From the NCBI RefSeq assembly GCF_902652985.1, contig NC_047019.1, positions 4,588,001 to 4,652,000 of the forward strand: a DNA stretch of 64,000 nt, written 5' to 3'. Under the pieces are notes generated by a model, which saw nothing but the letters and a program-made list of their open reading frames with translations, ran no database searches and was not told where the DNA came from. Shown in pieces: positions 3,001-62,756 of the stretch; the stretch's first letter is position 1; every line of letters starts with the position of its first letter. The translations under genes and the position numbers were made by a program. Source of the DNA: Pecten maximus (taxonomy: Eukaryota).

Positions 3001-3249
3001 TATTCCATAGAGTGACCATTCATGCATAAGCGGTCTAGTTCTGTATTAGCAGGGACATACTCACAAATATCGCTTGTCCAAGCTGACCATAGTAAAGATA
3101 TTTTGATGCTGAAAATAATTGTATTATTCATAAGAAAAAAGTTCTTATTAGGTACGGAAAAGCGAGAAATTTGAGGAATAAAAGAAACCCCTATATGGTT
3201 CGTTCATCACACCATTATAATATAAAAGTATGTATACAGTGTTTTTGAT

Positions 3250-8400: not shown

Positions 8401-11400
8401 GACGTGTAAGTCCCTGGGTTAGTGTGAGATGGACGTGTAAGTCCCTGGATTAGTGTGAGATGGACGTGTAAGTCTCTGGGTTAGTGTGAGATGGACGTGT
8501 AAGTCCCCGGGTTAGTGTGAGATGGACGTGTAAGTCCCTGGGTTAGTGTGAGATGGACGTGTAAGTCCCTGGGTTAGTGTGAGATGGACGTGTAAATCTC
8601 TGGGTTAGTGTGAGATGGACGTGTAAGTCCCTGGGTTAGTGTGAGATGGACGTGTTAGTCCCTGGGTTAGTGTGAGATGGACGTGTAAGTCCCCGGGTTA
8701 GTGTGAGATGTACAAGTCCCTGGATTAGTGTGAGATGGACGTGTTAGTCCCTGGGTTAGTGTGAGATGGACGTGTAAGTCCCTGGGTTAGTGTGAGATGG
8801 ACGTGTAAGTCCCTGGGTTAGTGTGAGATGGACGTGTTAGTCACTGGGTTAGTGTGAGATGGACGTGTAAGTCCCTTGGTTAGTGTGAGATGGACGTGTA
8901 AGTCCCTGGGTTAGTGTGAGATGGACGTGTAAGTCCCTGGGCCAGTGTGAGATGGACGTGTAAGTCCCGGGTTAGTGTGAGATGGACGTGTAAGTCCCTG
9001 GGTTAGTGTGAGATGGACGTGTAAGTCCCTGGGTTAGTGTGAGATGGACGTGTTAGTCGCTGGGTTAGTGTGAGGGTGGAGGAAACCCGGGGGAGTGTGG
9101 GGACGGTAGTCCCTGGGGTTTGTGTGAGATGGGCGTGTAAGTCCCGGGTTTTGTGTGAGGGACGGTAAGTCCCCGTGTTAGTTGAATGGACTTTTTGTCC
9201 CTGGGTTTGGTAGAGGGGTTTTGTCCCCGGGTTTGTGTGAGATGGAGGGTAATCCCGGATTAGTGTGGGATGGACGTGTAAGTCCCGGGGTTAGGTGAGA
9301 TGGACGTTTAAGTCCCCGGGTTATAAGAGATGGAGGGGTTTTAAACACTGGGTTGTGTGGGTGGGCGTGTTTTAAACAGGGTTAGTGTGAGAGGACGTTT
9401 AAGTCCCGGGGTTAGTGTGAGTGGACGTGTAAACCCGGGTTAGTGTGAGATGGAAGTTTTTAAGTCCCGGGTTAGTTGAGATGGACGTGTAAGTCCCTGG
9501 GTTAGTGTGAGATGGACGTGTAAGTCCCTGGGTTAGTGTGAGATGGACGTGTAAGTCCCTGGGTTAGTGTGAGATGGACGTGTAAGTCCCTGGGTTAGTG
9601 TGAGATGGACGTGTAAGTCCCTGGGTTAGTGTGAGATGGACGTGTAAGTCCCTGGGTTAGTGTGAGATGGACGTGTAAGTTCCAGGGTTAGTGTAAGATA
9701 TACAAGTCCCTTCGTAAATGTGAGTTGTACAGGTCCCTGTGGACAGTGTAAGATATAAAAGCCCCGGGGGTCAGAATGAGATAGACTTGTAAGTCCCCGG
9801 TGTCTTTTTAAGATAACAAGTCCCCAGGGTCGGTATGAGATATACAAGTCCAGGGGTCAGTGTGAGATGTACAAGTCCAGGGGTCAGTGTGAGATGTACA
9901 AGTCCCCAGGGTCAGTGTGAGATGTACAAGTCCAGGGGTCAGTGTGAGATGTACAAGTCCAGGGGCTAGTGTGAGATGTACAAGCCCCAGGAGTCGATTG
10001 TGCCAATCCCTGAGGTTAGTGTGAGGTGCACAAGTCCCCTGGGTCAGTTTGGGAAATACAAGTCCCCGGGGTCATTGTGAGATTACAAGTCCCCGGGGTC
10101 ACTGTGGAATATACAAATCCCCGGGGTCAGTGTAAGATATACAAGTACCTGGGGTCTATGTGAGATGTACAAGTCTCCTGCGTTTGTGTCAGATGTACAA
10201 ATCCTGGGGTCTCTGTGAGATGTACAAGTCTCTCGTGTCTTTGTAAGATGTACTCTAAGTCTCCTGGGTAAGTTTTACGTGTACAAATCTGAGATGTATA
10301 AGTTCTCGGAGTTGGTGTGAAATGTACAAATCCCCAGGATAAGTGTGAAATGTACAAATCCCCAGGATAAGTGTAAAATGTACAAGTCCCCAGGATAAGT
10401 GTGAAATGTACAAATCCCCAGGATAAGTGTACAATGTAGAAATCCCCAGGATAAGTGTAAAATGTACAAATCCCCAGGATAAGTGTAAAATGTACAAATC
10501 CCCAGGATAAGTGTAAAATGTACAAATCCCCAGGATAAGTGTAAAATGTACAAATCCCCAGGATAAGTGTGAAATGTACAAGTCCCCAGGATGAGTGTAA
10601 AATGTACAAATCCCCAGGATAAGTGTAAAATGTACAAATCCCCAGGATAAGTGTAAAATGTACAAATCCCCAGGATAAGTGTGAAATGTACAAGTCCCCA
10701 GGATAAGTGTAAAATGTACAAGTCCCCAGGATAAGTGTAAAATGTACAAATCCCCAGGATAAGTGTAAAATGTACAAATCCCCTGGATAAGTGTAAAATG
10801 TACAAATCCCCAGGATAAGTGTGAAATGTACAAATCCCCAGGATAAGTGTAAAATGTACAAATCCCCAGGATAAGTGTGAAATGTACAAATCCCCTGGAT
10901 AAGTGTGAAATGTACAAATCCCCTGGATAAGTGTGAAATGTACAAGTCCCCAGGATAAGTGTGAAATGTACAAGTCCCCAGGATAAGTGTAAAATGTACA
11001 AATCCCCAGGATAAGTGTAAAATGTACAAATCCCCAGGATAAGTGTGAAATGTACAAATCCCCAGGATAAGTGTAAAATGTACAAATCCCCAGGATAAGT
11101 GTGAAATGTACAAGTCCCCAGGATAAGTGTAAAATGTACAAATCCCCAGGATAAGTGTACAATGTACAAATCCCCAGGATAAGTGTAAAATGTACAAATC
11201 CCCAGGATAAGTGTACAATGTACAAATCCCCAGGATAAGTGTAAAATGTACAAATCCCCAGGATAAGTGTAAAATGTACAAATCCCCAGGATAAGTGTAA
11301 AATGTACAAATCCCCAAGATAAGTGTGAAATGTACAAATCCCCAGGATAAGTGTAAAATGTACAAATCCCCAGGATAAGTGTAAAATGTACAAATCCCCA

Positions 11401-15494: not shown

Positions 15495-17040
15495 ATATGA
15501 CCTTGGCTGTTGGTTATCCCTAGACACCCATTCCTAATATGATCATGGCTTTTGTTGCCCTCGAGCCAGACGTCATGATATGACCATGCCGTTTGCTGTC
15601 CCCTAGACAGACGTCCAGACATGACCCTGGCTGTTGTTGTCCCCCTAGACATCCGTCCTGATATGATAATGGTTTTTGCTGTCCCCTAGCCAGACGTCCA
15701 GATATGACCCTGGCTGTTGTTGTCCCCCTAGACATCCGTCCTGATATGACCATGGCTTTTGTTGTCACCTAGTCAGACGTACAGACATGACCCTGGCTGT
15801 TGTTGTCCCCCTAGACATCCGTCCTGATATGACCATGGCTTTTGTTGTCCCCTAGCCAGACATCCAGACATGAACCTGGCTGTTGTTTCCCCTAGACATC
15901 CGTCCTGATATGACCATGGCTTTTGTTGCCCCTAGACATCCGTCCAGATATGACCATGGCTTTTGTTGCCCCCATAGTCCTGGCTGTTGGTGTCCCCCCC
16001 CCCCCCCCCCCCCCCCTAGACAAATGCACCCCCCTCACTTTTTTATATGTTCCAGGCTGTTGGTGTATCAATAGACCCCTGTGTTTTGTCCCAGACTGTT
16101 TGTGTCTCCTAGACACCTGTTTTATGTTCCAGACTGTTGGTGTCCTTCTAGACACCGGTTTTATGTCCCTGACTGTTGGTGTCCCCCTAGACACCTGTTT
16201 TATGTTCCAGACTGTTGGTGTATCAATAGACACCTGTTTTATGTCCCAGACTATTGGTGTCCCCTTAGACACCTGTTTTATGTCCCAGACTGTTGGTGTC
16301 CCCCTAGACACCTGTTTTATGTTCCAGACTGTTGGTGTCCCCCTTGACACCTGTTTTATGTTCCAGACTGTTGGTGTATCAATAGACACCTGTTTTATGT
16401 CCCAGACTGTTGGTGTCCCCTTAGACACCTGTTTTATGTCCCAGACTGTCGGTGTCCCCCTAGACACCTGTTTTATGTCCCAGACTGTCGGTGTCCCCCT
16501 AAACACCTGTTTTATGTTCCAGACTGTTGGTGTCCCCCTAGACACCTGTGTGATGTCCCTGACTGATGGTGTCCCCTTAGACACCTGTTTTATGTCATTG
16601 ACTGTTGGTGTCCCCTTAGACACCTGTTTTATGTCATTGTCTGTTGGTGTCCCCCTAGACACCTGTATTATATCCCTGACTGTTGGTGTCCCCTAGACAC
16701 CTGTTTTATGTTCCAGACTGTTGGTGTCCCCCTAGACCCCTGTTTTATGTCCCAGACGATTGGTGTCCCCCTAGACCAATGTTTTATGTTCCAGACTGTT
16801 GGTGTCCCCCTAGACACCGGTTTTATGTCCCAGACTGTTGGTGTCCCCCTAAACACCTGTTTTATGTTCCAGACTGTTGGTGTCCCCCTAGATAGCTGTT
16901 TTATGTCCCTGACTGTTGGTGTCCCCCTAGACACATGTCTTTATATATCCCAGACTGTCGGTGTCTCCCTAGACACATGCCTTTATATGTCCACGACTGT
17001 TAGTGTCCCTCTAGACACCTGTCCTTATACATGTCCCTGA
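15495..17040. repeat. 39-bp minisatellite (CCCCTAGACACCTGTTTTATGTCCCAGACTGTTGGTGTC) preceded by a related ~40-bp sub-array
   Basis: Tandem units visible. The 39-bp unit (13 codons) explains the repetitive ORFs on both strands. Confidence 0.95.
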
Positions 17041-21893: not shown

Positions 21894-22429
21894 AGTTATG
21901 TACTCGAAAAATAAATGTGTTTTCAGAAATGTTTACATATTACATTTTATCTTCTTTTCTTAAGAAATATTTGAAAGGGGATTAAAAGTTCATGGATAAA
22001 TCTAATTTTTCACCCCTTCGGAGGTATAGGGCAGAAATTGGAATCTTTACCCAAAGATTCTGAAGTTGACAAACACAATGCTTGCTGATCACAAGATCTC
22101 CCCCCCCCCCCCCCCCCCCCCCATGGTGGTCAAATACTGGGTTTTTTTAATCTGAAAGTGTGGACCAGTCTCTGAGAAAATACACTTTTTGTATTGTAAA
22201 ATCATTTTCACACATGACATAACATCCATGGCACTTAATTATACCGCTGTTCTCTCATTAATAGGAAAGAAAAGCTGGTAAAACATTTAATCTCATAACA
22301 CACCACATCCCAGGTTTTGCATAAACTAATATTTTATGAAGAAAAGAACTCAATATGTAAAATAAAAAGATTGTTTTAAGGATAACAACTTTATTCTTTC
22401 ATGTCCATATAATTTATGATGTATATCGA

Positions 22430-23000
22430 AGGTTCAACCAATATTAGGTTTCACAAATTAGCACATAACGTTCAACCAATATTAGGTTTCACAAATTAGC
22501 ACATAACGTTCAACCAATATTAGGTTTCACAAATTAGCACATGACGTTCAACCGATATTAGGTTTCACAGATTAGCACATGACGTTCAACCGATATCAGG
22601 TTTCACAGATTAGCACATGACGTTCTACCGATATCAGGTTTCACAGATTAGCACATGACGTTCAACCAATGTCAGGATTCACAAATTAGCACATGACGCT
22701 CAACAGATGTTAGGATTCACAAATTAGCACATGACGTTCAACCAATGTTAGGATTCACAAATTAGCACACGACGCTCAACCAATGTTAGGATTCACAAAT
22801 TAGCACATGATGTTCAACCAATGTTAGGATTCACAAATTAGCACATGATGTTCGACCAATGTTAGGATTCACAAATTAGCACATGACGTTCAACCAATGT
22901 TAGGATTCACAAATAAGCACACGACGCTCAACCAATGTTAGGATTCACAAATTAGCACATGATGTTCGACCAATGTTAGGATTCACAAATTAGCACATGT
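22430..23000. repeat. 38-bp minisatellite (GTTCAACCAATATTAGGTTTCACAAATTAGCACATAAC), ~15 copies
   Basis: Direct tandem repeats with a polar gradient of variants. Confidence 0.95.
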
Positions 23001-25462
23001 GTTGTGGAACAAAATATATTTAATTAATTATAGCTCACAATGTTCGTTAACATTGAACCAAGTTCATATCTATGCTGTTTTAATGAACTTTCAACATTCA
23101 AACCACAGAGAACCACAATACATATAAGTTCACATCTAATACTGCACACATATCTAAATATGTTATACTATTGCTTATTAATTAGTATTACTGTAGAGAT
23201 GGTAATATTTGTGGGAGATTTAATTTCGCTATATTCATGATCATGAAACATAATGTGAAAATAAATACCCTTGAAATATTTACATGTACAAACAAATGAA
23301 TACACATGTTCACAAGGCGTGGTTGCACAAAATAGGTCCAAATGGGATGAACATCCTATGAAATTTGGAAATTGGACAAAAAACAAAAAAACAAACAAAA
23401 AATGGCCAAATTCAGAAACTGGAGATTTTTTTCCCCCCAGATTTCTTTTTAATATTTTTTCACTGCTACTATCTGCTGAAGGTTATACAAAGATTCCAAT
23501 ATCAAGTAAGATTTGGTTATCTACTACAGAAATACATGTAGCTTACCAATTATCAACCATCAACGAAAAATTTAAAAAAAAAAAGAAAAAAAAAAGAAGA
23601 AAATCAGCAGTGTTATGGCCTATTGAAAATAATTCCACATCAAATGCACAACGAACGGGACTAAAGAATGTACCAAGTTTAGACACAGAAGGGAGGTAAC
23701 TCTTGCATATGAATTTATTTTTTCTGATGAAAGAATGGATGTAACACTGCATTTATTAAAAAAAAAAATTTGTTATATTTATTTATGTTTTTGATCTACT
23801 TACCGGCTTTTAATCTAAATGATATCAACATATTCCGATAAAGGAATTTATGACTTGTCGTAATTTAAAAAATATGCAGAAAGCGAGATACAAGATTTAA
23901 TTTGAGTCAATTTAATACACACAATGTCTTATTGTTGTCACTATAGTATATATAGATACTTAGTTTATTCGATATAGTACACATACTGATTATCACCTTG
24001 ATATAAGTTATCTCACATGTTGCCAGTTGTACAATACATCATCCTTCATATCTATGATAACAATGGTTACATTATTTTAATTTTCTCGTGGGTTCATTCG
24101 CAGGTGTGAAACAATTGACATTGCATATACAGTTACAAAAAAAAAAAAAAATCATCAAAATTTCAGGAAAATAAACTGACATTAACAGACCAAATTCCCA
24201 CATAAAACGAAGTGATAAACTGAAAAACTTCTAAGTGACGACAGACAGATCATTCTGTCTGAGTGGCAAATAAAGAAAGTCACCTGATTACATTATGTAT
24301 GTACCAAACTGAATCATGACTTACTGTTAAAACTGATATTTTAATTTTTTTTTTTAATTTTTGCCTTTTTAGGATGAAGATGGGATGAAATCACAAAAAA
24401 TATACACCTTGAAATCATAATTATAAAAAAACTTGTTCATTCGTTTACTTTTGTAAAAAAAACCACATTTCTTCTACTCATCAAACTTTTGGTTAATATA
24501 TACACTATGACTTATATGTTAGTGTCTCGGAGTTGATTTTAAAACATCTCGCACACTACATTGTAGTGTGAACAGGATAAAGTCATATGGTTTACTGGTC
24601 TGAATGAAGGCAATCGAAACAACATAATGCTATGAGTAATCCAAATGTTACATATAAACTTAACATGCTGTTGTTCGTGCTATATAAACCTACATGTATA
24701 TACGTTAATTAATATATACATTTTGTATTTACTAAGGTACGGATAAAGTCTACAAATAAGAGAGTTATCAGCTGTTGAAATGTCATGACTTGATTCTATG
24801 ACAAAAATAATGTTTTTATAGTATTCCAAATCATTGTCTTTTAAAACTTACATAATCTTTTTTAACCACTGTATATATTTCACATTTTTCCTTTTAATGT
24901 CATATTCCATATAATATCATGATTTCATGTGATATTAAGTGGAAGCAATAGTGAAATCACTGTATAAGTGTTAATACTTAATTTACCTACATGTATATAC
25001 AAATGTACACATATTGACAAGATTTTATAGTGATATATTTTAGTGCTGTACAATTATCACTTAAGATTACTCAACTACATCACTTCAAGTAACAATTTTA
25101 AATTCATACTTACAATATGTACAATTTCTATTGCTTCATAGATAAATAATTACTACATCTACGTAGATATGTCACTGTTAAGGATCCTGCATCAAGTTAA
25201 AGCTTCATTATTGGAAATAAAATCCAAGCAGATTTATTTTTTTTCATTTATTCATAGCTCGATTGAAACCATATTAATTTGATAAACTAAAATGAAAATC
25301 TTGGGTCACATGATACTCAGGTATGTAGAATATTTCTAGAATCAGGAAAAAAATCCACTTCTAGATTCATGGAAGATCTATCTCAATTTAAGTAATTTTT
25401 TATCAGTGTCACAGATCTTGGTATTCTCATCTGAACAAGAAAACATTATTTTCTTGTCACAC

Positions 25463-47925: not shown

Positions 47926-48204
47926 ATGTTACATGTATCTGATATTAGAAAATAGTTTTGATATCAGAAAACGGCAATGAATATTCTTTGGTCTATTCTG
48001 AAACCGGGCACAATTAAAGTATGGAATCGATCCGGAGATATAGTGCTCATACATGTAGGGATCTGTTTTCAACATTGATTATGAGACATGTTACCATGGA
48101 GTCATATTTAACGAAATGTTATACCAGAACACTGACAGATCAGAAAGGACCTCCTTAGTGTGGCCATTTATGTCCCCCATACATGAAGTCACAAAATACG
48201 AAAT

Positions 48205-51200
48205 GTTGAATGTCTAGCGACACAACATTCAAAATCTGAATGTCATGTGTCGAGCTACACAACATTCAAAATCTGAATGTCATATGTCTAGCGACACAAC
48301 ATTCAAAATCTGAATGTCATATGTCGAGCTACACAACATTCAAAATCTGAATGTCATATGTCTAGCGACACAACATTCAAAATCTGAATGTCATGTGTCG
48401 AGCTACACAACATTCAAAATCTGAATGTCATGTCGAGCGACACAACATTCAAAATCTGAATGTCATATGTCTAGCGACACAACATTCAAAATCTGAATGT
48501 CATGTCGAGCTGCACAACATTCAAAATCTGAATATCATATGTCTAGCGACACAACATTCAAAATCTGAATCTCATATGTCTAGCGACACAACATTCAAAA
48601 TCTGAATGTCATGTCGAGCTGCAAAACATTCAAAATCTGAATGTCATGTGTCGAGCTACACAACATTCAAAATCTGAATGTCATATGTCTAGCGACACAA
48701 CATTCAAAATCTTAATGTCATGTGTCGAGCTACACAACATTCAAAATCTGAATGTCATGTGTCGAGCGACACAACATTCAAAATCTGAATGTCATATGTC
48801 TAGCGACACAACATTCAAAATCTGAATGTCATATATCGAGCTACACAACATTCAAAATCTGAATGTCATGTCGAGCGACGCAACATTCAAAATCTGAATG
48901 TCATATGTCGAGCTACACAACATTCAAAATCTGAATGTCATGTGTCGATGTACACAACATTCAAAATCTGAATGTCATATATCGAGCTACACAACATTCA
49001 AAATCTGAATGTCATGTCGAGCGACGCAACATTCAAAATCTGAATGTCATATGTCGAGCTACACAACATTCAAAATCTGAATGTCATATGTCTAGCGACA
49101 CAACATTCAAAATCTGAATGTCATATGTCCAGCTACACATTCAAAATCTGAATGTCATGTGTCGAGCTACACGACATTCAAAATCTGAATGTCATGTGTC
49201 GAGCTACACAACATTCAAAATCTTAATGGCATATGTCGACCTACACAATTAACATTCAAAATCTGAATGTCATATGTCGAGCGAAACAACATTCAAAATC
49301 TGAATCTCATGTGTCGAGCTACACAACATTCAAAATCTGAATGTCATGTGTCGAGCTACACGACATTCAAAATCTGAATGTCATTTGCCGAGCTACACAA
49401 CATTCAAAATCTGAATGTCATATGTCTAGCGACACAACATTCAAAATCTGAATGTCATATGTCTAGCGACACAACATTCAAAATCTGAATGTCATGTCGA
49501 GCTGCAAAACATTCAAAATCTGAATGTCATGTGTCGAGCTACACAACATTCAAAATCTGAATGTCATATGTCTAGCGACACAACATTCAAAATCTGAATG
49601 TCATGTGTCGAGCTACACAACATTCAAAATCTGAATGTCATGTGTCGAGCGACACAACATTCAAAATCTGAATGTCATATGTCTAGCGACACAACATTCA
49701 AAATCTGAATGTCATATATCGAACTACACAACATTCAAAATCTGAATGTCATGTCGAGCGACGCAACATTCAAAATCTGAATGTCATATGTCGAGCTACA
49801 CAACATTCAAAATCTGAATGTCATGTGTCGATGTACACAACATTCAAAATCTGAATGTCATATATCGAGCTACACAACATTCAAAATCTGAATGTCATGT
49901 CGAGCGACGCAACATTCAAAATCTGAATGTCATATGTCGAGCTACACAACATTCAAAATCTGAATGTCATATGTCTAGCGACACAACATTCAAAATCTTA
50001 ATGGCATATGTCGACCTACACAATTAACATTCAAAATCTGAATGTCATATGTCGAGCGAAACAACATTCAAAATCTGAATCTCATGTGTCGAGCTACACA
50101 ACATTCAAAATCTGAATGTCATGTGTCGAGCTACACGACATTCAAAATCTGAATGTCATTTGCCGAGCTACACAACATTCAAAATCTGAATGTCATATGT
50201 CTAGCGACACAACATTCAAAATCTGAATCTCATATGTCTAGCGACACAACATTCAAAATCTGAATGTCATGTCGAGCTGCAAAACATTCAAAATCTGAAT
50301 GTCATGTGTCGAGCTACACAACATTCAAAATCTGAATGTCATATGTCTAGCGACACAACATTCAAAATCTGAATGTCATGTGTCGAGCTACACAACATTC
50401 AAAATCTGAATGTCATGTGTCGAGCGACACAACATTCAAAATCTGAATGTCATATGTCTAGCGACACAACATTCAAAATCTGAATGTCATATATCGAGCT
50501 ACACAACATTCAAAATCTGAATGTCATGTCGAGCGACGCAACATTCAAAATCTGAATGTCATATGTCGAGCTACACAACATTCAAAATCTGAATGTCATG
50601 TGTCGATGTACACAACATTCAAAATCTGAATGTCATGTCGAGCGACGCAACATTCAAAATCTGAATGTCATATGTCGAGCTACACAACATTCAAAATCTG
50701 AATGTCATATGTCTAGCGACACAACATTCAAAATCTGAATGTCATATGTCGAGCTACACATTCAAAATCTGAATGTCATGTGTCGAGCTACACGACATTC
50801 AAAATCTGAATGTCATGTGTCGAGCTACACAACATTCAAAATCTTAATGGCATATGTCGACCTACACAATTAACATTCAAAATCTGAATGTCATATGTCG
50901 AGCTACACAACATTCAAAATCTGAATCTCATGTGTCGAGCTACACAACATTCAAAATCTGAATGTCATGTGTCGAGCTACACGACATTCAAAATCTGAAT
51001 GTCATTTGCCGAGCTACACAACATTCAAAATCTGAATGTCATATGTCTAGCGACACAACATTCAAAATCTGAATCTCATATGTCTAGCGACACAACATTC
51101 AAAATCTGAATGTCATGTCGAGCTGCAAAACATTCAAAATCTGAATGTCATGTGTCGAGCTACACAACATTCAAAATCTGAATGTCATATGTCGAGCTAC

Positions 51201-51581
51201 ACAACATTCAAAATCTGAATGTCATATGTCGAGTTACACAACATTCAAAATCTGAATGTCATGTGCCGAGCTACACAACATTCAAAATCTGAATGTCATG
51301 TGTCGAGCTACACAACATTCAAAATCTGAATGTCATATGTCGAGCTACACAACATTCAAAATCTGAATGTCATATGTCGAGTTACACAACATTCAAAATC
51401 TGAATGTCATGTGTCGAGCTACACAACATTCAAAATCTGAATGTCATATGTCGAGCTACACAACATTCAAAATCTGAATGTCATATGTCGAGTTACACAA
51501 CATTCAAAATCTGAATGTCATGTGCCGAGCCACACAACATTCAAAATCTAAATGTCATGTGTCGAGCTACACGACATTCGA
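48205..51581. repeat. 37-bp satellite (CATTCAAAATCTGAATGTCATATGTCGAGCTACACAA), ~90 copies, with higher-order repeats
   Basis: Direct tandem repeats with 35-bp variants; diagnostic variants recur at 775-883-bp spacing. Confidence 0.97.
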
Positions 51582-53212
51582 AAGTTCCTTCGTTGGCTAG
51601 TGAAAACATGTTGACCATGCTTCACGTAAGTGAATCGATAAATGAATAACTCATCGCTTGACCTTGCACTTTGACCTACTGCTCTTGACATTATGTGCGG
51701 TCATATTAATCGAGCCGACATGGCGGGTTTAGTTACGAAATGGTAAACCATTTGTAACATTCCACGGGTCGGAGTGAAGAATGCGCTGATGGTTCAATTG
51801 TCAACGGCATATTCAGGTCAATATTCAACGCTGAAAACTGACCCCGGGTCAATTTTCAACGTGGGTCCATTTTCAACGTTATAAAGGGCCGTAGTGTTTC
51901 CCCTAAGAAATATTACTGACCCCCCTATAGTCTCATGGGGTCACTAACATGTGACCCTTTTTTCACCTATCAAATGCAACAAGTCTGTCCGATCCGACAA
52001 GTTTATTATCCGGAAGCAAAAATTTCCGTGACGTCATAAATACACTTAATAAATTATAGTGACAATTAATGCAGAGCAAATGGAAATATACCTTGACTCT
52101 AGAAGGTTAACAAATTAAAGTTTATTTTTTGACTGAATGACATTGCATGCTTTCAAAACAGTAGAAGGCAAATTGTATTCATTGAAAAAAAAAAAAAAAA
52201 CAGGCGTCGAGTTATTATATGGAATAGAAGCATTTGTTTTGGTGAGAAACTATCAATTTCTAAACATTTTCTTCGGGTTTGAGAGTATGGTTTATATAAC
52301 TTTTCGTTACACAACCAATGGAAGACCGATCAGAAAGCAGTCGGGGTCACAGATCAATAAATAGGCTGTTGTATATACATAACACCCCGTACAAAAAATA
52401 AAATTAACATGTGATCGACTGGAAAACCCCAAAAGTATTGGAAAGGTAGAGCAATCCTTCGAGGCGGCAGATTTTAAAAAAGCAACATTTTGATACACCG
52501 CAGTGGGTCAGTACTAAGTCGAGATGAGGGGGCACATAGACTCTCGCAACGGCATATTACATATGACCACTATTAGGCAAAGGGTAGCAGAATAGAGTCG
52601 TTTCGATACATGATGATTGTTGCGCATGTATACATACATGTACATCATTAGGTATATGCATGTATTACCAGGTCAGTATCTGGCTATCGTGGTTTTTTTT
52701 AAAATAGATCAGATTAAAGATTAGCTTTGCTGAACGGGTTTTTATCCCCGGTAAAAATCAAGTTTGTTATTATTATAAATATACGACATTGGCTAACTAC
52801 GCCGATCTAGCTGTAACAATTACAGGTTCACTTAAAAATACTAAATAATACACACATTAATTGTTATAATTGATATGTAACATACTCAGACACATATTAA
52901 TACATTGTAGGTCTCTGGCATGGTGGGGGAAATAATGGATAGCATGTTCAATATTTTTGGTCCACATGAAAAAACCAAAGTCACTCCACATGAATAAAGG
53001 GCCTTTTTTGCTAAAAATTATTAGCTTTGACATCTGAAATTAATTAGCCTTTGAGGCATATATAAAATCATAGAATTCCATTGTAATAAATGACCTTAAC
53101 ATGTTTCAGTGACAACATAACATTGTCTATTGTCTTGTCCAAACTATACCATTGTAAGAAACGAATGTTTTGTAGATCTACCAATAGACTACACTTTTGA
53201 TATGCTCATATA

Positions 53213-54020
53213 TGTCACACGAGTAGTATAATATGTGGGTATTTCTTCAATTATGCACAAACAATGTTCAAATGAAGCACAGTTTATTTAACATAAACAC
53301 AGACACACACACGGAGACAGTGACCTGAAATAAAAAGAACAATACCTAAAATACATACGGACACGTGTAAACGATGCCGACAATTACATTATTCAATACT
53401 TAACGCATTAAATATTCATTTAGGTATATTTTATATGTTTATATTATATTCTATTTTATTCCATAGTTACACTTTTACAATAAACAATTATAATACATTA
53501 TTTTTACAATAGCTTTGACCCTATGGAGCCCGACCACGTGTACGTCATATGTAAAATATTTTAACATATTAAGGGCAAGATATTTAAAATGCAAATATAT
53601 TAGTTTAATGTATTTTATATATCAAATAGCTAAAATACATTAAATATGTATTTATATTATTATTTTAAATTAAATAAACTTACCTAGAAGCACTGTGGCC
53701 GTAAAGCACACAGGCTTATACCAGACGTGTATGTTGGTGCAGGGTCTATAGCCGTTGTGGCTGCACTCACCTGGGCAAGGCCCAGGTAAAGTTTTCCACG
53801 TGCACGGGTATAGGGTCATGCAGGGTCAAAGTGACACACTCAACCAATCCTTGCGCTCACCTCTCATACGTCACCATAACAACTATATACACAGGTACAT
53901 AGGACATTATATGACACAGGGACTTGTACAAACATTATACACGATACACAGCGCAAGTATTTATACACACTTTACATGTACAGGTGTTGGTCAGACTATT
54001 AAAGTTTGACCACCGTGACA
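53213..54020 (-). repeat. 3' LTR
   Basis: Direct repeat of 61736-62543 with two substitutions seen by eye; adjacent to the PPT. Confidence 0.97.
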
Positions 54021-54031
54021 TTCTCCCCTGC
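54021..54031 (-). other. Polypurine tract
   Basis: GCAGGGGAGAA immediately 5' of the 3' LTR on the element strand. Confidence 0.9.
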
Positions 54032-54124
54032 AAAGGAAAATGACTCCTGGCATTTCAACTAATATATCAACCACAATGGTTGAATCTACTAATAATATAA
54101 AAGAATGAGCAGCTAATTATCTAA

Positions 54125-54175
54125 TATCCAAGTGATTGGGGCAATCCCTACCTACGAGGAATACAAGATAACTGC
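54125..54175 (-). other. Putative structured cis-acting RNA element, copy A (3' UTR)
   Basis: 49/51 nt identical to 59917-59967; folds into a bulged long stem-loop on the element strand. Confidence 0.6.
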
Positions 54176-54503
54176 TCATATAACACTATAGAATGAAAAA
54201 TCTAAAATTAACATCTGTATAAAATGAAATTATCACCTTGGCCAGTGTCCCAAGGTAATATAATTATATATTCCATAACTACTTAGAGATTTTCTCCCCT
54301 GCCATGTGGAACAAAGCTTTCCTGATGTGAATATTAATCTTTTACTTTATAATTGAATGTAAATTACAATTATGCTACAGTTTCTACTTACTTAATGGTA
54401 AACCATAAGGTAATACACACAAGTAGCTGTAGAGATTAAATATTAATTTCACAATTTGAAGTAAACTTTGTCCACCACGACATTCTCCCACTGCTCTGAG
54501 TAT

Positions 54504-57500
54504 CTAGACGTAGACTTCAGCTCCAGAATTGGACGGTACCAAGGTTCCCATGAGCCATTCCCCATACAAGTTAGGAGATTTACAGACTCGCCTGGGCCTT
54601 ACAGCTGGTATCGAGTCTTGTGTCTGACCTTCACTGCCTGCAGTGTTGGAATTTCGACACACACCCTTATTACCCTGTTTCGGAGAATCCCCTGAACCAA
54701 CAGTATGTGGTTGCACTGGCTGTCGCGACTCAGCAACAGTGCGTCTGGGTCTCCTAGCAGGAATAACATATCTGGGTGTTTGACTCCCATCCTCATCTGA
54801 GCTATCAGAGTCAGTAGTTGAGGAGGAACTCTCAACTAACTCTATTCCGGCATTCTGATGATTTCGGGTTGTCTCCCTTGGTTCCTGGGCACCCGCTGTT
54901 CTGGGTAACCACATGAAAGGGAGGAGCAGGTTCCTATGTACAGTTTTTATAGGTCCCTTTCCCGACTCTTTCTGGATCTTGTATACAGGCATATCAACAT
55001 TTGGCACACTAAGGATAATGTAGGGATCCTTAGCCCATTTATCTGCCAACTTTTGCTTGCCACATATACCAACGTTCCTCATCAGAACCCGGTCTCCTAC
55101 TTCTAAGGTAGCTTCTCTAACCCCCCTATCATACCTATCTTTGTACCGCTTACCCTTCCTTTCACTTTCAGCCGAGGCAGCTTTGTAGGCAAAGTCTAAC
55201 CGACGCTTAAGTTTCTGGGCATAATTCTGACGACTCCCTACAGTCTCAGAACTGGTATCGATGCCAAGAAATGCATCTACACCAAGTCTCGGGTGCCAAC
55301 CAAACATTAAGTAATGAGGAGAATATCCTGTGGTCTCATGTTTTGTTGCATTGTATGCATGAACAAGAGGAGCCACATAGGATTTCCAACTGGATTTTTG
55401 TTCTTCCTCCATAGTACCTAACATTTTCAACAGTGTTTGGTTGAACCGTTCGACCATGCCATTGCCCATAGGATGGTAAGGGGTAGTTCTGGTTTTCTCC
55501 ACTCCAGCTATCTTGCAAAGTTCTTTGATAACTTTGCTTTCAAAATTCCTGCCCTGGTCACTATGAATACGGGCAGGAAAGCTGTAGTGGACCATAAATT
55601 GTTCGTACAACACCCTGGCGGTGGTACTCGCTAATTGGTTCCTGGTTGGAATTGCTTGGGCATAGCGGGTGAAATGGTCAGTGATAACAAGCACGTTTTC
55701 GTAGCCCCCCTTTGACCTTTCTAAGGTCAAATAGTCAATGCAGAGAAGCTCCATTGGACGGGAACTTTGGATATTGACTAACTCTGCACTTGGGACAGTA
55801 GGGGTTTTTCTACGAACACACCTACCACAGCTTTCAACCCAACTATTCACCTCAGCATCAAGGCCTGGCCAGAAAAACCTTCGCCTTGCCAACCAGTTTG
55901 TACGGTCACGTCCCTGATGACCGACATCTTCATGCACTCCCCTGAGGACTTTCTCCCTATATGCCTTGGGAATGACTAACTGTTGAACAGGGTCACCATC
56001 TACTGTGGTGTTTCTATACAGAACACCCTTAAGTAGCCTCAACAGCCGCCACTCCCGCATATATTGACACACCTCCTCAGGTTCGTGTTTCAATATCTTT
56101 TTATCAGGTCGAATCCCCTCCCTGACAAAATCTATCACCCTCCTAAGATGTTTATCTAAGGACTGTTGTTTTTCCCAATCCACACCAGAGAGTTTTACAT
56201 TCCCTATATTTAGGGTGTTGTTCTCCGGTTCTAGGGATGATGTATTTGAGAGTACAACAGTTTCTGCTAAAGGCAACTCCTCTCTAGTGGACAAAGAAGC
56301 ACAGGTAACTGCTCTCACTACATCTGGGAAAACTTCCTCTTGCTGATACGGTCGTCTTGACAACCCGTCAGCATCCCCATTGAGACGGCCCGCTCTATAA
56401 ACTAATTTAAAGTTATAGTTTGAGAGTGAGGCTAACCACCTATGACCTGCTGCGTCCAGCTTCGCTGTGGTCGTCACATAGGTTAGAGGGTTGTTATCTG
56501 TACGTACCTCAAAAGTGTTGCCATACAGGTAATCATGGAACTTGTCAGTGAGTGCCCATTTGAGACAAAGAAATTCCAACTTATGAGCTGGGTAGTTTCT
56601 TTCACTCGGACGTAAACCTCGACTGGCAAACGCAATCACCCTTTCATGGCCCCCTTGATTCTGGTACAGCACAGCACCTAAACCTTCTACAGAGGCATCT
56701 GTGTTAACAATGAAAGGCTTGGTGAAGTCTGCATATGCTAACACAGGTGGAGAAGCTAGAAGACTGACTATGGTATCGAAAGCCTTCTGCTGACTATCCC
56801 CCCATACCCAGGGAATCTTTTTCTTTGGCCCCTTAACATTTTTGTGGGTACAGTGTCCAACAAGAAGATCATTTAAAGGTTTTATGATTTTTGCATAATC
56901 CTTAATGAACCTCCTGTAGTACCCTGTGAAACCTAGAAATGAGCGTAGCGTCTTGACATTGACAGGTTCTGGCCATGTCTTCAACGCCGCAAGTTTATCT
57001 GGGTCAGTTTGAATTCCTTCCTCAGAAACAATGTGCCCCAGATAGCACACTTGAGACTTAAAGAATTCACATTTGGAGGGCTTTAGCTTTAAGCCGTGTT
57101 TTTCAAGCCGTTCAAACACACCCTCCAGTCTTTTGAGGTGTTCCTCAAAGGTGTCTGAAAATATGAGAATGTCATCCAGGAAAATTAAACATTCCTTAAG
57201 ATGGCTTTCACCCATACAAGCTTGCATCAATCTTTGAAAAGTTGCTGGCGCATTAGTTAGACCAAATGCCATGCGGTTACATTCAAAGAAACCTAGTGGT
57301 CCGACAGAAAAAGCTGTCTTTGCCTTGTCCTCCTCCTTGATCTCGACTTGCCAGTATCCAGACCTCAGGTCCAGCTTACTGAAGTATCTTGATCCAATTA
57401 AGGAGTCCAAGGTTTCCTCCACCCTAGGTAGGGTGTAGGCATCCTTAATGGTTTTCCCATTGAGTTTACGCAAATCAATGCAAAATCTTAGGGACCCATC

Positions 57501-58646
57501 TTTCTTTCGAACGAGGACCACATTCGAACAGTAGGGACTGTGAGACTCTCTGATAGCGTCAGACTCCATCATCTCCTTAAGATGTTGTCTCACTTCCTCA
57601 TACATCCCTGGTGGAATACGACGATATGGTTCCTTAAATGGAACATCGTCTGAGAGTTTTATCTCGTGTTGCACCAAGTCTGTCTTTCCCAAATCCTTTG
57701 AGGATGTGGAGAAAATATGCTGCCACTTGCCCAGTATCTGGTATGCTCTCTCCAACTGTTCAGGAGAGAGGTTGTCCTTGTTTACTGAGACCCCCAGTTT
57801 GTCCCACCATTCCCCCTCCACCTGATCCTTAGAGGATTCAGTATCATCTTTGTCAGAGGGTTCTGGGGACCACCTGTCCATTACCTTTACATCTGTTAGA
57901 GTACACAAAGGTGATTTTGGAGAGATAGTAATTGACTCTGTAGAGAGATTACAGATCCGGACTGGTATACGTTTGAGTCTACCAGGTGCGCATTCCAGCG
58001 ACACTACCCTTGGACATACCACCAGGTTCCCGGATTGCAGTGAGCTGTCCTGTTCTGTCACAGCTGTACTAAAGTTCCCCACCTTGCGTACCAACCCATG
58101 GACAGTCTTTACCTGGTTTGGACCTATGGACACTGGGTATGTATTGGCAGATTTCACCACCATGGGATTATTGACACACAAACTGTCAACAGCAGACTGC
58201 CAAGCATCTGGAAAAGTAGAATCAGAGCTAGCCTGTTGTATATCCCTACACATACGTATAATATTTGTGCCAACAATAACAGGAACTTGTCTGTTATAGT
58301 TGGTCATCGGTGTTACCAATATAGGTACACACATCACGCAATCAGACAGAAATGGAATACTGACATCTGCCTCAATATATCCCAAGTATGGTAACTTGGA
58401 CCCACCTGCTCCGAATACCTGAAGATCAAAATCTTTGATATCCATCAGAACAGGCCTGGGGTTCAGAGATTTATAACAATTCTCTGAAATGCAAGTGATC
58501 ATAGAGCCACTATCAATGAGAGCAGAATGTGTCTTCCCCCCTATTATGATCTGGTCAATATTTGAGCTACCAACCATTCGTTCATACAGGGTACTGTCTG
58601 TAGCGGTATTGTTACTTGGGCCATTCCTACCTTCACCACCCCCCAT
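54504..58646 (-). CDS. pol: Pol polyprotein (aspartic protease, reverse transcriptase, RNase H, integrase)
   Basis: ALIDSGS protease motif; RT motifs LRFCIDLRKLN, DLRSGYWQ, MAFGLTNAPATFQ, FLDD; RNase H TDAS...HKLEFL...TDNNPL; integrase HHCC (HEDVGH...CGRC) and D-D-E (CIDY, HSDQG, VERFN); uninterrupted 1380 aa. Confidence 0.97.
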   Translation of the reverse strand: MGGGEGRNGPSNNTATDSTLYERMVGSSNIDQIIIGGKTHSALIDSGSMITCISENCYKSLNPRPVLMDIKDFDLQVFGAGGSKLPYLGYIEADVSIPFLSDCVMCVPILVTPMTNYNRQVPVIVGTNIIRMCRDIQQASSDSTFPDAWQSAVDSLCVNNPMVVKSANTYPVSIGPNQVKTVHGLVRKVGNFSTAVTEQDSSLQSGNLVVCPRVVSLECAPGRLKRIPVRICNLSTESITISPKSPLCTLTDVKVMDRWSPEPSDKDDTESSKDQVEGEWWDKLGVSVNKDNLSPEQLERAYQILGKWQHIFSTSSKDLGKTDLVQHEIKLSDDVPFKEPYRRIPPGMYEEVRQHLKEMMESDAIRESHSPYCSNVVLVRKKDGSLRFCIDLRKLNGKTIKDAYTLPRVEETLDSLIGSRYFSKLDLRSGYWQVEIKEEDKAKTAFSVGPLGFFECNRMAFGLTNAPATFQRLMQACMGESHLKECLIFLDDILIFSDTFEEHLKRLEGVFERLEKHGLKLKPSKCEFFKSQVCYLGHIVSEEGIQTDPDKLAALKTWPEPVNVKTLRSFLGFTGYYRRFIKDYAKIIKPLNDLLVGHCTHKNVKGPKKKIPWVWGDSQQKAFDTIVSLLASPPVLAYADFTKPFIVNTDASVEGLGAVLYQNQGGHERVIAFASRGLRPSERNYPAHKLEFLCLKWALTDKFHDYLYGNTFEVRTDNNPLTYVTTTAKLDAAGHRWLASLSNYNFKLVYRAGRLNGDADGLSRRPYQQEEVFPDVVRAVTCASLSTREELPLAETVVLSNTSSLEPENNTLNIGNVKLSGVDWEKQQSLDKHLRRVIDFVREGIRPDKKILKHEPEEVCQYMREWRLLRLLKGVLYRNTTVDGDPVQQLVIPKAYREKVLRGVHEDVGHQGRDRTNWLARRRFFWPGLDAEVNSWVESCGRCVRRKTPTVPSAELVNIQSSRPMELLCIDYLTLERSKGGYENVLVITDHFTRYAQAIPTRNQLASTTARVLYEQFMVHYSFPARIHSDQGRNFESKVIKELCKIAGVEKTRTTPYHPMGNGMVERFNQTLLKMLGTMEEEQKSSWKSYVAPLVHAYNATKHETTGYSPHYLMFGWHPRLGVDAFLGIDTSSETVGSRQNYAQKLKRRLDFAYKAASAESERKGKRYKDRYDRGVREATLEVGDRVLMRNVGICGKQKLADKWAKDPYIILSVPNVDMPVYKIQKESGKGPIKTVHRNLLLPFMWLPRTAGAQEPRETTRNHQNAGIELVESSSSTTDSDSSDEDGSQTPRYVIPARRPRRTVAESRQPVQPHTVGSGDSPKQGNKGVCRNSNTAGSEGQTQDSIPAVRPRRVCKSPNLYGEWLMGTLVPSNSGAEVYV

Positions 58647-58666
58647 TTGCCCTACAACAGGGGAGG

Positions 58667-59842
58667 TTACTCTTTTGGCTCAGACTTACCTGTTGAGGAC
58701 TTCTGGGTATTACCATTTTTTTGTTTCTGGTAAGTATTGCCGCGTCCAGCATTACCTTTATTTTGGTATGCCCCAGACTTACCAGTACCCTCAAGTTTCT
58801 TTTCGAGAGAATTGATTTTGCTCATCAAGGCACTTACCTGCTCACTGAGCTTGTCAAGCTTTTTATCACTCTCCGAAACTTGTATAGGGCTGTGTTGGGC
58901 TTTAGCCTTTGTAGGCTTATTGGCCGCTTTCTGTGCTGGGTTGAGCTCTAGGTCTACCGCTCTAACCTCCCTCAACAGCAAGTCGTATGACTTAATAGAG
59001 TCATACTTGTGACGCGTCTGGCCTTTCAATCTGTCGCAGCGCAAGCCAGTCCAAAATTTGGATCGGATCATGTCATCCCTGGCTGAAGGGCTTACATGTC
59101 CACTGTTTATGGCAAGCTGCAACAGTGCCTCTAGTCTGCACCCGAATGCGGTGACAGATTCACCTTCTTTCTGTGTAGCAGAATAGAACTGCTGTAATAC
59201 AACTTCATTAGAAGCTACATTACCAAAGAAGGTGTCCAACTTTTTCAGAACTTCATCCAAAGTTGCCATAGGACCTAAAGGTATAAGAGTCTGACGAGCG
59301 ATACCCCTGAGTGATTTCCTTATAGCCTGAAGAACAAGCTCTTCGGACAGGGTGCTGTCAGATGCTAGACACCTGACCTCGTATCGCCATCCCTCATATG
59401 TGGTTTCACCACGTTGAGGTGACTCATCTCCTGAAAATGAGGAGATTTTCGGAACCTGGGGTAAAAGGTGTGTATTCCTATTCAGCGATGGAGTTAGAGG
59501 AACCCCATATCCTCCCCCCAGACCCGAAAATGGAGAATCATTAGATATAGGAGGTAAAGGAGTACTGGTATTCCCCCCATCCCCAAGTCCAGCGAAATCA
59601 AATTTTAATGAACCTTGGGCCCCTACCATACCTTTGTCACTGCTCGCAGATTTAACATTAACAGGAGCTTGTGACACAGCAGGAGTTTTGATAGAGCCAG
59701 GATCTCTTACACTCAGCATGCTATCATACTCCATCTTGGTAAATAGGACATAGTCACTATTCTGGCGCAGAAGGCTAGCCATGAGGTCATAGTCTGCCTG
59801 CTCCAAGTTGGAGGTTCCTGCTGGTGGCTTTGAGTCTGCCAT
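58667..59842 (-). CDS. gag: Gag (PNMA/Ma-like capsid), no CCHC knuckle
   Basis: PKISSFSG...YEGWRYEV...IRKSLRG...QQFYSATQKEGESVTAFGCRLE is typical of PNMA-type Gypsy capsids; a coiled-coil and a K/G/N-rich tail follow. Confidence 0.92.
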   Translation of the reverse strand: MADSKPPAGTSNLEQADYDLMASLLRQNSDYVLFTKMEYDSMLSVRDPGSIKTPAVSQAPVNVKSASSDKGMVGAQGSLKFDFAGLGDGGNTSTPLPPISNDSPFSGLGGGYGVPLTPSLNRNTHLLPQVPKISSFSGDESPQRGETTYEGWRYEVRCLASDSTLSEELVLQAIRKSLRGIARQTLIPLGPMATLDEVLKKLDTFFGNVASNEVVLQQFYSATQKEGESVTAFGCRLEALLQLAINSGHVSPSARDDMIRSKFWTGLRCDRLKGQTRHKYDSIKSYDLLLREVRAVDLELNPAQKAANKPTKAKAQHSPIQVSESDKKLDKLSEQVSALMSKINSLEKKLEGTGKSGAYQNKGNAGRGNTYQKQKNGNTQKSSTGKSEPKE

Positions 59843-59916
59843 CTCAGACTAAATACAAATATAAAAACTACAAATTAATATATGTAAACAATGAACTAAG
59901 CAGTGAATATATCAAG

Positions 59917-59967
59917 TATCCAAGTGATTGGGACAATCCCTACCTACGAGGAATACAAGACAACTGC
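59917..59967 (-). other. Putative structured cis-acting RNA element, copy B (between SGNH ORF and gag)
   Basis: 49/51 nt identical to 54125-54175. Confidence 0.6.
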
Positions 59968-60019
59968 ATACAAGTATATCACCAGTAAACTCAAGTATGT
60001 AGAATTGTATGTATGATAT

Positions 60020-60742
60020 TTACACACAATAAGTACAAATTGAAACAACAAGTCTTTTCATCCAACACCTAGCTAGTAGAGGACTAGGATGGATCCCATC
60101 CTTGTACAGACTAAAATTCAATGAGATCCGGGACTTATCCTGGTTTCTCGACTTCCTGTACCTAACTAAGTCTAACCTAAGATGAGGTGAACAGACTTGA
60201 GATCTAGTATTGACCTCTGTCAGGAAGCTGTTCAATTCCAACACTCTCTCATTTAGAATGAGATCTTGAGTTTGGAATGAATCAGGGTTTGGATGCCCCT
60301 TGGATTTATTCCACTCTTGTATAGAGTATGAGGGGATTTCCAAAAATAATAACTGTACAGTAGGAAATTGGGACACTATGGAAATAAACTTGTTAATTTC
60401 AAACTGCAAATCCGAACTAGCAGATATAGAAGTCTGATGTCGTAAACTAATGAATTTCCCTTGCTTTACTGTGAGGTCACATGTACCTAACCACACATAT
60501 AAAACAATATTTGGATATGAACTAACCCTAATTGGAAGTTCAGTTTCCAACCAGCGAAGGAAATGTATAAAGCGACCACCTGGTTGGCAATGGAACTCAA
60601 GACTACAGTCTAAGTGCTGTAGCAAATCCAAATGCCTTTTCAGGTAAAATCCCTTACTACTAGTAAGAAGTATAGGTTTCTTCCTTATAGTAACATTAGG
60701 AACAGCTTTATCAATAAATTTCTGGAGCTTACTACAACTCAT
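60020..60742 (-). CDS. SGNH/GDSL hydrolase (esterase)-like protein, 240 aa, carried inside the LTR element
   Basis: Motifs in canonical order and spacing: block I ILLTSSKG (GDS-like, Ser kept), block II PGG, block III VWLGTCDL (GxND-like), block V YKDGIHP (DxxH). Intact ATG-to-TAA ORF between the PBS and gag. Confidence 0.8.
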   Translation of the reverse strand: MSCSKLQKFIDKAVPNVTIRKKPILLTSSKGFYLKRHLDLLQHLDCSLEFHCQPGGRFIHFLRWLETELPIRVSSYPNIVLYVWLGTCDLTVKQGKFISLRHQTSISASSDLQFEINKFISIVSQFPTVQLLFLEIPSYSIQEWNKSKGHPNPDSFQTQDLILNERVLELNSFLTEVNTRSQVCSPHLRLDLVRYRKSRNQDKSRISLNFSLYKDGIHPSPLLARCWMKRLVVSICTYCV

Positions 60743-61720
60743 AACCTATTGCGGTTTCAGAGTATACGAATACAAAATGATACTAAACCTGTAACTGTAA
60801 CTACAACATACAAAAATAGTATGAGTAGGGACAATATCTAAGTTATTAGAATATAAAATACACTGCGCTGACATAAAACACAAAGGACAGATACACCATT
60901 TACAAACCCATCTCTGGCATCTTCCTCCCACTCTCAGCCTTCTTAGTATTCCCCTTCCGCTACAGTGCAGTGCAATGTGTGCAAGGTTAGTGGTTCAGAA
61001 TTGTTAGCTGGGAAGCAAGCATGCAAGATATAAATATCTTATAGTTTTGTAAATAAGTATCACAGTTAAGTTTAAACTTAAGAAATATATGTTTAAATAT
61101 TGTAAATGTTTAAATTCCTTAATAAATAAACCGATTTACGCGATATATTTAAATATATTGAAATATCGGCGTTATTTTTACATTTACATTTAATAATATA
61201 TTTTACCATAAATGTTTAAAATTCACTGATTTGATTTATGTCTACAATTATAGACTGACAAGATATAAACGTCCTGAAAATAAACATCATACATGAAACA
61301 AATGAATAATAAATGAATAATCAATAGTATCACAGTGTTACAAATGTTCAAATGACAAGATATCTAGCAATTAAATTTAAAGTCAGTTCATATAAAACGC
61401 GAACGAAAAATGTCAACAGTCACTGGAAACGGATCCGCACTGGACGACACAGAAAATGTTACAATTAATCCATCGGCGACAGCAGGAAACGAACCATGGA
61501 CGACGAAGAAACGATGACAGGACTATGATAATCAATAAATCACACAGTCATGACGAAGTAACGAGACGAAAACAGTTGACGAACAGCAAACACCATCACC
61601 GGAAGCACATGTTGTCGTTGCTCCAGAGTGATCTCCCCTGATCATGTCATCCGGTTATCACGTGATCACCCACGTGGTAAAACGTGGGCGTACGATGCCA
61701 CTGCCTCCGTAAAAGAAATT

Positions 61721-61734
61721 CACGTTGGGCGCCA
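61721..61734 (-). other. Primer-binding site for tRNA-Lys(CUU) (Lys1,2-type)
   Basis: TGGCGCCCAACGTG one base after the 5' LTR matches the first 14 nt of the classic Lys1,2 PBS TGGCGCCCAACGTGGGGC. Confidence 0.9.
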
Positions 61735-61735
61735 A

Positions 61736-62543
61736 TGTCACACGAGTAGTATAATATGTGGGTATTTCTTCAATTATGCACAAACAATGTTCAAATGAAG
61801 CACAGTTTATTTAACATAAACACAGACACACACACGGAGACAGTGACCTGAAATAAAAAGAACAATACCTAAAATACATACGGACACGTGTAAACGATGC
61901 CGACAATTACATTATTTAATACTTAACGCATTAAATATTCATTTAGGTATATTTTATATGTTTATATTATATTCTATTTTATTCCATAGTTACACTTTTA
62001 CAATAAACAATTATAATACATTATTTTTACAATAGCTTTGACCCTATGGAGCCCGACCACGTGTACGTCATATGTAAAATATTTTAACATATTAAGGGCA
62101 AGATATTTAAAATGCAAATATATTAGTTTAATGTATTTTATATATCAAATAGCTAAAATACATTAAATATGTATTTATATTATTATTTTAAATTAAATAA
62201 ACTTACCTAGAAGCACTGTGGCCGTAAAGCACACAGGCTTATACCAGACGTGTATGTTGGTGCAGGGTCTATAGCCGTTGTGGCTGCACTCACCTGGGCA
62301 AGGCCCAGGTAAAGTTTTCCACGTGCACGGGTATAGGGTCATGCAGGGTCAAAGTGACACACTCAACCAATCCTTGCGCTCACCTCTCATACGTCACCAT
62401 AACAACTATATACACAGGTACATAGGACATTATATGACACAGGGACTTGTACAAACATTATACACGATACACAGCGCAAGTATCTATACACACTTTACAT
62501 GTACAGGTGTTGGTCAGACTATTAAAGTTTGACCACCGTGACA
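61736..62543 (-). repeat. 5' LTR
   Basis: Direct repeat of 53213-54020; adjacent to the PBS. Confidence 0.97.
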
Positions 62544-62756
62544 TATACGGAGATCCAAATCTATCGATTACAGAGAATGAAAATATTTTCCATTGCATCC
62601 AACTTTATATTTTAAAAACCAAACGTTTTTTAAATTAATAGTGCCATTTTACGAGTCCCAAGAGGTCACTATAGTGCTGTATATTTACATTATATTACTA
62701 TGTTTTATTATGTCATTTTGCTTATGTAGTACCTATAGTATCACTAGGTCCCATTA

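Follow-up and report, generated by a model that had tools for sequence, protein, structure and literature searches.

An intact Ty3/Gypsy long terminal repeat (LTR) retrotransposon lies on the minus strand of a 64,000-nucleotide (nt) stretch of Pecten maximus DNA (assembly GCF_902652985.1, contig NC_047019.1, positions 4,588,001–4,652,000; hereafter the window), and its RNA would carry two copies of a short hairpin that recurs in other LTR retrotransposons and in non-LTR elements (long interspersed nuclear elements, LINEs). On comparative sequence evidence this hairpin is a real, selected and apparently undescribed family of RNA motifs with a putative function. The first open reading frame (ORF) of the element encodes a basic protein of the SGNH-hydrolase fold, and the explanation that we prefer, while stopping a little short of calling it probable, is that the hairpin is a multi-copy binding site for this protein.

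The Hairpin and Its Fold

An initial annotation of the window had described a 51-nt motif present twice, and this duplication is borne out: positions 54125–54175 and 59917–59967 are identical at 49 of 51 positions (2 differences), copy A lying in the 3′ untranslated region (UTR) and copy B 76 nt past the SGNH stop codon, as it had placed them. The flanks that it called unrelated are not wholly so, because a BLAST match stretches to 103 columns at 81.6% identity. The conserved unit is a hairpin apex of ~19 nt on a long stem, rather than the 51-mer, and consists of a bulge, a GGU/AYC helix, an A•A mismatch, a GGG/CCC helix and a variable loop; in the window copies the order is GU/AC, bulged A, GGU/AUC, A•A and GGG/CCC, capped by a short loop, and the pair probabilities are 0.93–1.0. 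The two copies are located as follows.

54134..54152, minus strand: hairpin apex of copy A, in the 3′ UTR; GGU/AUC, A•A, GGG/CCC and a 5-nt loop, with the bulged A at 54153; 45.4 bits against the covariance model, for which it was a training sequence
54105..54179, minus strand: full extended stem-loop with copy A; 0 of 200 shuffles fold as well
59926..59944, minus strand: hairpin apex of copy B, 83 nt before the gag ATG
59900..59967, minus strand: full extended stem-loop with copy B; 3 of 200 shuffles fold as well

In folding, the 51-mer by itself does not exceed chance (z −0.27 and −0.58); 75-nt element-strand copies beat dinucleotide shuffles (z −4.67 for copy A and −2.86 for copy B). The outer stems named in the annotation form in these longer copies, but its inner pairs (AGGU/ACUU and GAUUG/CAAUC) belong to neither the minimum-energy fold of the element strand nor the covarying fold, the GAUUG/CAAUC pairing being formed by the plus strand of copy A. 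Its claim of strand specificity likewise holds in part: folding within the window shows little bias (copy A, z −4.67 vs. −4.70), but across families the strand is shown by G-U pairs and by orientation. In the Rfam search that it proposed (Rfam 15), neither copy had a match at E ≤ 10, nor did the motif in seven further loci at E ≤ 1, and no description of the hairpin was found in full-text literature searches that did not extend to subscription papers or Repbase reports.

Conservation and Covariation

Among 27 instances anchored in transposable elements (TEs), 74 of 108 cells of the lower stem are paired, vs. 55.3 ± 4.3 in shuffles (0/10,000); these flank positions had no role in the selection of instances, and their pairing peaks when the bulge is one base and drops in the other registers. 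The sense strand gives the more stable fold in 26 of 28 cases. When 40 copies of all subtypes are aligned, 47 cells have changed on both sides, vs. 21.9 expected from shuffles (0/500), and slid-structure controls pair at 37–55% vs. 81%. The loops (3–7 nt) vary freely across these 40 copies, and about five bases are near-invariant. One mirror-image match (L077) was dropped ahead of the covariation count, which reduced the alignment from 52 to 51 rows. In the covariation check that had been suggested, run here with shuffle tests, the pairs covary; the proposal of a selected cis-RNA element gains support from this covariation and from conservation, both extending across families and animals. A kissing-loop form of the dimerization raised in the annotation is unlikely, since there is no conserved self-complementary loop.

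The motif has at least 40 genomic matches in the element's own family, and its 19-nt core is kept at 18–19 of 19 positions in old copies whose surroundings are 69–78% identical. A recent chance duplication without function would account for the recent look of the 49/51 identity and for an older B copy (L073) that matches at 43–44 of 51 positions only, the same as its surroundings; its probability is close to negligible, as cross-family conservation already largely refutes it, the core persisting amid diverged surroundings and recurring with covariation in unrelated elements. Since copies A and B share a 5′ arm in the young subfamily and L073 differs there, the near-identity of the window copies probably reflects recent copying between the two sites, over an old motif, as judged from this one old B copy. 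Recombination between the copies had been predicted to leave LTR-SGNH-LTR derivatives; none was found, as none of 12 B-type copies is joined to A-type downstream sequence, and a DNA search that skips common words found no copy in which the motif links sequence from the SGNH side with the 3′ UTR among the best 40 of 42–44 candidates. One locus considered as such a derivative (L072) proved to be a truncated copy in tandem duplication; the truncation is at the SGNH end, and both the motif and the polypurine tract (PPT) are missing.

The Hairpin in SGNH-Bearing LTR Retrotransposons

Forty loci were collected around SGNH relatives in the genome, 16 gypsy families among them. The apex or a variant of it is present in 15 of the 16, on the sense strand and outside coding frames, and the same apex occurs in families whose pol identity is only 30–57%. 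Forty SGNH-less LTR loci (30 families, picked by RNase H) gave no sense-strand match under E 0.1, the sole match being antisense (E 0.03). The initial annotation had the copies bracket gag-pol, an arrangement that does not extend to a rule: only 3 of the 16 families show it, and the position of the hairpin is therefore flexible. Of the other families, six have a single copy, located after SGNH, four confine their copies to the 3′ UTR, and in two a copy in the 5′ leader is joined by two more past SGNH.

Within 320 nt past the SGNH stop, 12 of the 20 SGNH families from this genome have a hairpin, whereas Markov controls give 1.2 of 30 windows; most other copies follow the pol or ORF2 stop. This placement would fit a role in translation termination, either protection from nonsense-mediated decay, as by the RNA stability element (RSE) of Rous sarcoma virus (RSV), or an influence on how translation restarts at the downstream ORF. 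Such a role is nevertheless improbable: three loci hold a copy in the 5′ leader right after the primer-binding site (PBS; L090, L093, L095), several families have no copy after SGNH (L069, L075, L078, L079), the same pattern occurs in 3 of 39 SGNH-less post-pol windows, and the RSE is CU-rich and ~155 nt long (PMC9143442).

The SGNH-Fold Protein

The candidate protein partner is encoded upstream of gag.

60020..60742, minus strand: stand-alone SGNH-fold ORF, the first ORF, 240 amino acids; intact Ser and DxxH motifs, a net charge of +12 and a predicted β-hairpin rich in K/R

Its structure model (pLDDT 95) matches GDSL lipases at Z 17.0, the top matches all being SGNH/GDSL proteins, and has an atlas score of 0.93 to GDSL clusters; the OSK domain of Oskar aligns at Z 14.6 (rmsd 2.5, 163 aligned residues), tied with or below many ordinary esterases. 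The ORF has no Pfam match, a sequence search of the PDB returned no SGNH relative, and its named homologues are from bivalves. Ser, Asp, and His are invariant in 20 aligned rows, in which block III reads GTCD instead of GxND. The SGNH proteins carry net charges of +9 to +21, with 5–10 K/R in the 32 residues preceding DxxH. LTR and LINE hosts are intermixed within clades of the SGNH tree, which omits five rows that had no open SGNH frame; hairpin subtypes map to supported clades, one of which (99/97) unites LTR and LINE elements.

The Hairpin in Non-LTR Elements

Across the genome the core pattern occurs 890 times, vs. 18 for the reversed control, a count inflated by a tandem array; array-free subtypes occur 377 vs. 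10 and 74 vs. 3 times. An ORF match was found in 29 of 60 pattern loci, in every case (29/29) on the motif's strand. The first 20 pattern loci comprise two SGNH gypsy elements, six that are 3′ UTRs of three unrelated LINE families, and a remainder without ORF match, some of them LINE tails; of the loci without a TE ORF match at first, which were considered as possible host-gene copies, three look like LINE tails on reading (L103, L110, L115), and a further six are motif loci without such a match (L105, L107, L108, L109, L111, L118). Hairpin-built tandem arrays were observed with 39-bp units (from G000:C2:2286650 onward, L119; about a hundred among the matches listed) and with 96-bp units (L065:2990–3559).

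Tandem arrays of this kind, the 39-bp array on C2 and the 96-bp units, are what might speak for a self-cleaving ribozyme, another suggestion of the annotation. The motif is a single hairpin with a variable loop and few near-invariant bases, no catalytic core or pseudoknot was found in it, it has no match to an Rfam ribozyme, and cleavage upstream of the PPT or LINE tail would presumably destroy the template; a ribozyme is accordingly hard to credit.

At six loci (L088, L091, L092, L097, L265, L279), a LINE carries SGNH as a stand-alone ORF upstream of ORF1/ORF2. SGNH-bearing LINEs have up to 7–8 hairpin copies, the overall range being 1–8 per element. Among 28 LINE loci picked by their endonuclease domain, the hairpin was found in four of five SGNH families (one of them found solely by a hand-made pattern and one weak) vs. 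two of eight SGNH-less families. Two motif-bearing LINE families have full-length copies without an SGNH ORF, and their sister families (53–75% protein identity) are without the motif; the motif of L246 sits in an extra ~300 nt of 3′ UTR, and the 75%-identical sister L249 has none.

These LINEs bring in a different partner, a host RNA-binding protein that would export or stabilize unspliced polycistronic retroelement RNA, as with the direct repeats (DRs) of RSV or the constitutive transport element (CTE) of Mason-Pfizer monkey virus (MPMV); SGNH elements would need this protein most, their extra ORF lengthening the message. A host factor would explain why at least five SGNH-less LINE families have the hairpin in their 3′ UTRs, patchily among sisters as in L246 and L249, and why it is position-independent and repeated, like the two DRs that flank src (PMC9143442); like a DR or CTE, it is a hairpin structure that lies outside the coding parts of unspliced retroelement RNA. 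However, a single host target would favor one sequence, and several distinct subtypes in one genome track SGNH clades; the SGNH-less LTR loci need export too, yet their sense strand is without the hairpin in all 40; and Rfam holds no match. We regard a host factor as the main alternative and a serious one, less likely than the SGNH protein.

Other Animals

SGNH-gag-pol or SGNH-LINE elements were also found in contigs from metagenomes and symbiont assemblies, which apparently represent host-animal DNA; as an observation in its own right, GTDB symbiont assemblies include contigs with animal-type retrotransposons (L233–L243). In a held-out test on 21 contigs, with a covariance model trained on the P. 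maximus genome alone, seven matches at E < 0.07 fell in four loci, all on the sense strand, six of them after the SGNH stop and one after the pol stop. One locus 99.5% identical to L070 (L221) was dropped as not independent, and L233, which duplicates L234, was excluded from the test. Viral contigs yielded no SGNH relative; two pattern matches in them, with no retroelement ORFs, were treated as chance.

Public RNA Data

Contigs from eight public runs cover the element and span both hairpin copies unbroken; such contigs prove neither transcription nor strand, and empty-site joints show that the runs contain DNA or intronic RNA. No contig in these runs joins at either copy or splices between the copies, with the limit that contigs drop rare forms. 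In a contig of run X1, an internal deletion of 3819 nt (56447–60267) has taken out copy B, gag and a portion of pol, copy A being retained; splicing between the copies was considered for this large deletion and rejected, its ends not being GT-AG.

These data bear on two further alternatives. The 5′ arm reads AG/GUAGG or AG/GUGAG in many copies, so that the hairpin might hold a 5′ splice site or a recursive YAG/GT site. Variants there read GGA, UUU, AGC or GGC (L063, L092, L265), and no junction lies at either copy even though the same data did reveal a real 359-nt GT-AG intron in the LTR; a splice site thus seems very doubtful, rare forms being those that could have been missed. A packaging or dimerization signal recognized by Gag would suit the copy right after the PBS in three related loci and the retention of copy A in the deleted form of run X1, but the hairpin is present in LINEs, which have no Gag, and its loops vary and are not complementary between copies, so we give this alternative equally little credence.

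The Host Element in the Window

The remaining features of the element, whose ORFs are ordered SGNH, gag and pol, are listed below.

53209..62547 including target-site duplication (TSD), minus strand: intact Ty3/Gypsy LTR retrotransposon; LTRs with TG..CA ends, TSD, PBS, PPT
61736..62543, minus strand: 5′ LTR, 808 bp, TG..CA, 2 differences from the 3′ LTR
53213..54020, minus strand: 3′ LTR, 808 bp
61720..61734, minus strand: PBS, read from the sequence
54021..54031, minus strand: PPT adjoining the 3′ LTR, read from the sequence
58667..59842, minus strand: gag, PNMA-like capsid (Pfam PNMA, E 1.5e-14)
54504..58679, minus strand: pol open frame with protease (PR), reverse transcriptase (RT), RNase H (RH) and integrase (IN), from the ORF list and Pfam scan

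The PBS presumably resembles one of the tRNA-Lys type. Pol overlaps the end of gag in a different frame, with the domain order PR-RT-RH-IN in the Pfam scan, and the same scan gave no zinc-knuckle match in gag. The TSD, TATA, flanks both LTRs, and an empty-site joint with a 4-nt overlap is present in public-run contigs; the insertion is polymorphic, the empty-site joint occurring in four of four runs of one contig set. The LTR intron (53325–53683 and 61848–62206, minus strand) is skipped by one RNA contig, and the exact intron-less junction occurs in four genomic loci (L001, L007, L033, L035), which suggests that spliced RNA was retrotransposed. The 3′ UTR has two further PPT-like tracts on the minus strand (54470–54494 and 54290–54302); the former, ~10 nt past the stop of pol, precedes a copy that looks like an LTR start, which hints at an older LTR boundary. 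Elsewhere in the window lie long satellite arrays (2850–10900, 16000–17000, 22300–23100 and 48000–51800; periods of 28, 31, 39, 38 and 37 nt).

A Candidate Protein Partner

The loop varies, the bulge and helix are conserved, the position is free and the copies are multiple; together these traits fit a protein-binding site better than a ribozyme, a kissing loop or a splice site. We therefore infer that a protein partner is likely, with the SGNH ORF product as the candidate, because the hairpin accompanies the SGNH ORF in LTR and non-LTR elements alike and its subtypes group with SGNH clades; the candidate is plausible since the SGNH proteins are strongly basic and OSK, an SGNH-like domain that binds RNA (PMC5785220), shows that the fold can do so. 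Under this explanation the K/R-rich β-hairpin of the SGNH protein would read the groove opened by the bulge, binding would single out the RNA to be transported or assembled into particles, and hairpin-bearing LINEs without SGNH would use the protein in trans. More tentatively still, the SGNH ORF and the repeated hairpin might form a portable protein-RNA module swapped between LTR and non-LTR retrotransposons of mollusks, in which the esterase fold recognizes its own tag and anchors the RNA at membranes or vesicles, the esterase-less LINEs having acquired the tag.

Several observations weigh against the SGNH protein as partner or against the breadth claimed for the motif. The hairpin stands in the 3′ UTRs of five SGNH-less LINE families (L102, L104, L106, L261, L262), which a host factor explains equally well, and conversely two SGNH-bearing elements show none: L278, in which no hairpin match was found, and a gypsy element (L071), in which no apex was seen and whose 3′ UTR is not within its covered sequence. 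Physical linkage alone is expected to produce the co-grouping of subtypes with SGNH clades. The catalytic residues, which OSK is without, are intact here, so that catalysis alone may be what the SGNH protein does; lipids, but not oligo-(A) RNA, were bound by the ZfL2-1 esterase (PMC3905857). Among the 21 contigs of other animals, 17 gave no match under E 0.07; short hairpins of other kinds, often duplicated, were seen by eye after the SGNH stop in six of the loci (L226, L227, L230, L231, L224, L232) and may be distant subtypes or separate motifs, and several contigs have none. As to the motif itself, covariation is weaker in the narrow alignment (7–23 of 500 shuffles on four measures and 107 on a fifth), kinship of sequences can beat shuffles without structure and can inflate covariation figures, and the broad motif class was widened by eye after the data had been seen.

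The role of esterase ORFs in retroelements is an open question in the papers cited here, and the hairpin is tied to that ORF in both major classes of retrotransposon; its subtypes offer natural specificity controls for a direct binding test. If the partner is instead a host protein, the hairpin points to an export or stability pathway common to unrelated retroelements of these animals. In both cases the hairpin makes up a family of structured RNA that Rfam 15 does not contain.

Comparison with Known Systems

In pairs of the Rev/RRE and phage-coat/operator types, a protein encoded by the element binds a hairpin on its own RNA. The logic proposed here is alike, joining a basic protein to a bulged hairpin, but the candidate has an SGNH-hydrolase fold with intact catalytic residues. 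The OSK domain of Oskar shares an SGNH-like fold and differs in being without the catalytic residues that the protein here keeps; a common fold shows no function.

RSV DR1/DR2 and the MPMV CTE are likewise hairpin cis-elements outside coding frames, two copies flanking a gene block in RSV (PMC9143442). The hairpin described here, however, has no Rfam or sequence match, a conserved part of only ~19 nt, a variable position and copy number, and a distribution that extends to non-LTR elements. It is like the RSE in often standing directly after a stop codon with a very long downstream region, but the RSE binds PTBP1 (PMC9143442), and the motif here is a short GC-rich hairpin found in 5′ leaders as well.

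Also among the closest known systems are the esterase-bearing retroelements, which include ZfL2-1, CR1 and RTEX, with the esterase in ORF1p, and the bdelloid Vesta (ORF3) and Athena (GDSL ORFs). That SGNH/GDSL ORFs are common to LTR and other retroelements is already known (PMC5408684), and a role in ribonucleoprotein assembly or membrane targeting has been proposed for them (PMC5408684, PMC3905857). In the elements described here, by contrast, a repeated hairpin, which goes unmentioned in the passages cited, accompanies the SGNH protein, whose stand-alone reading frame comes first and precedes gag or ORF1.

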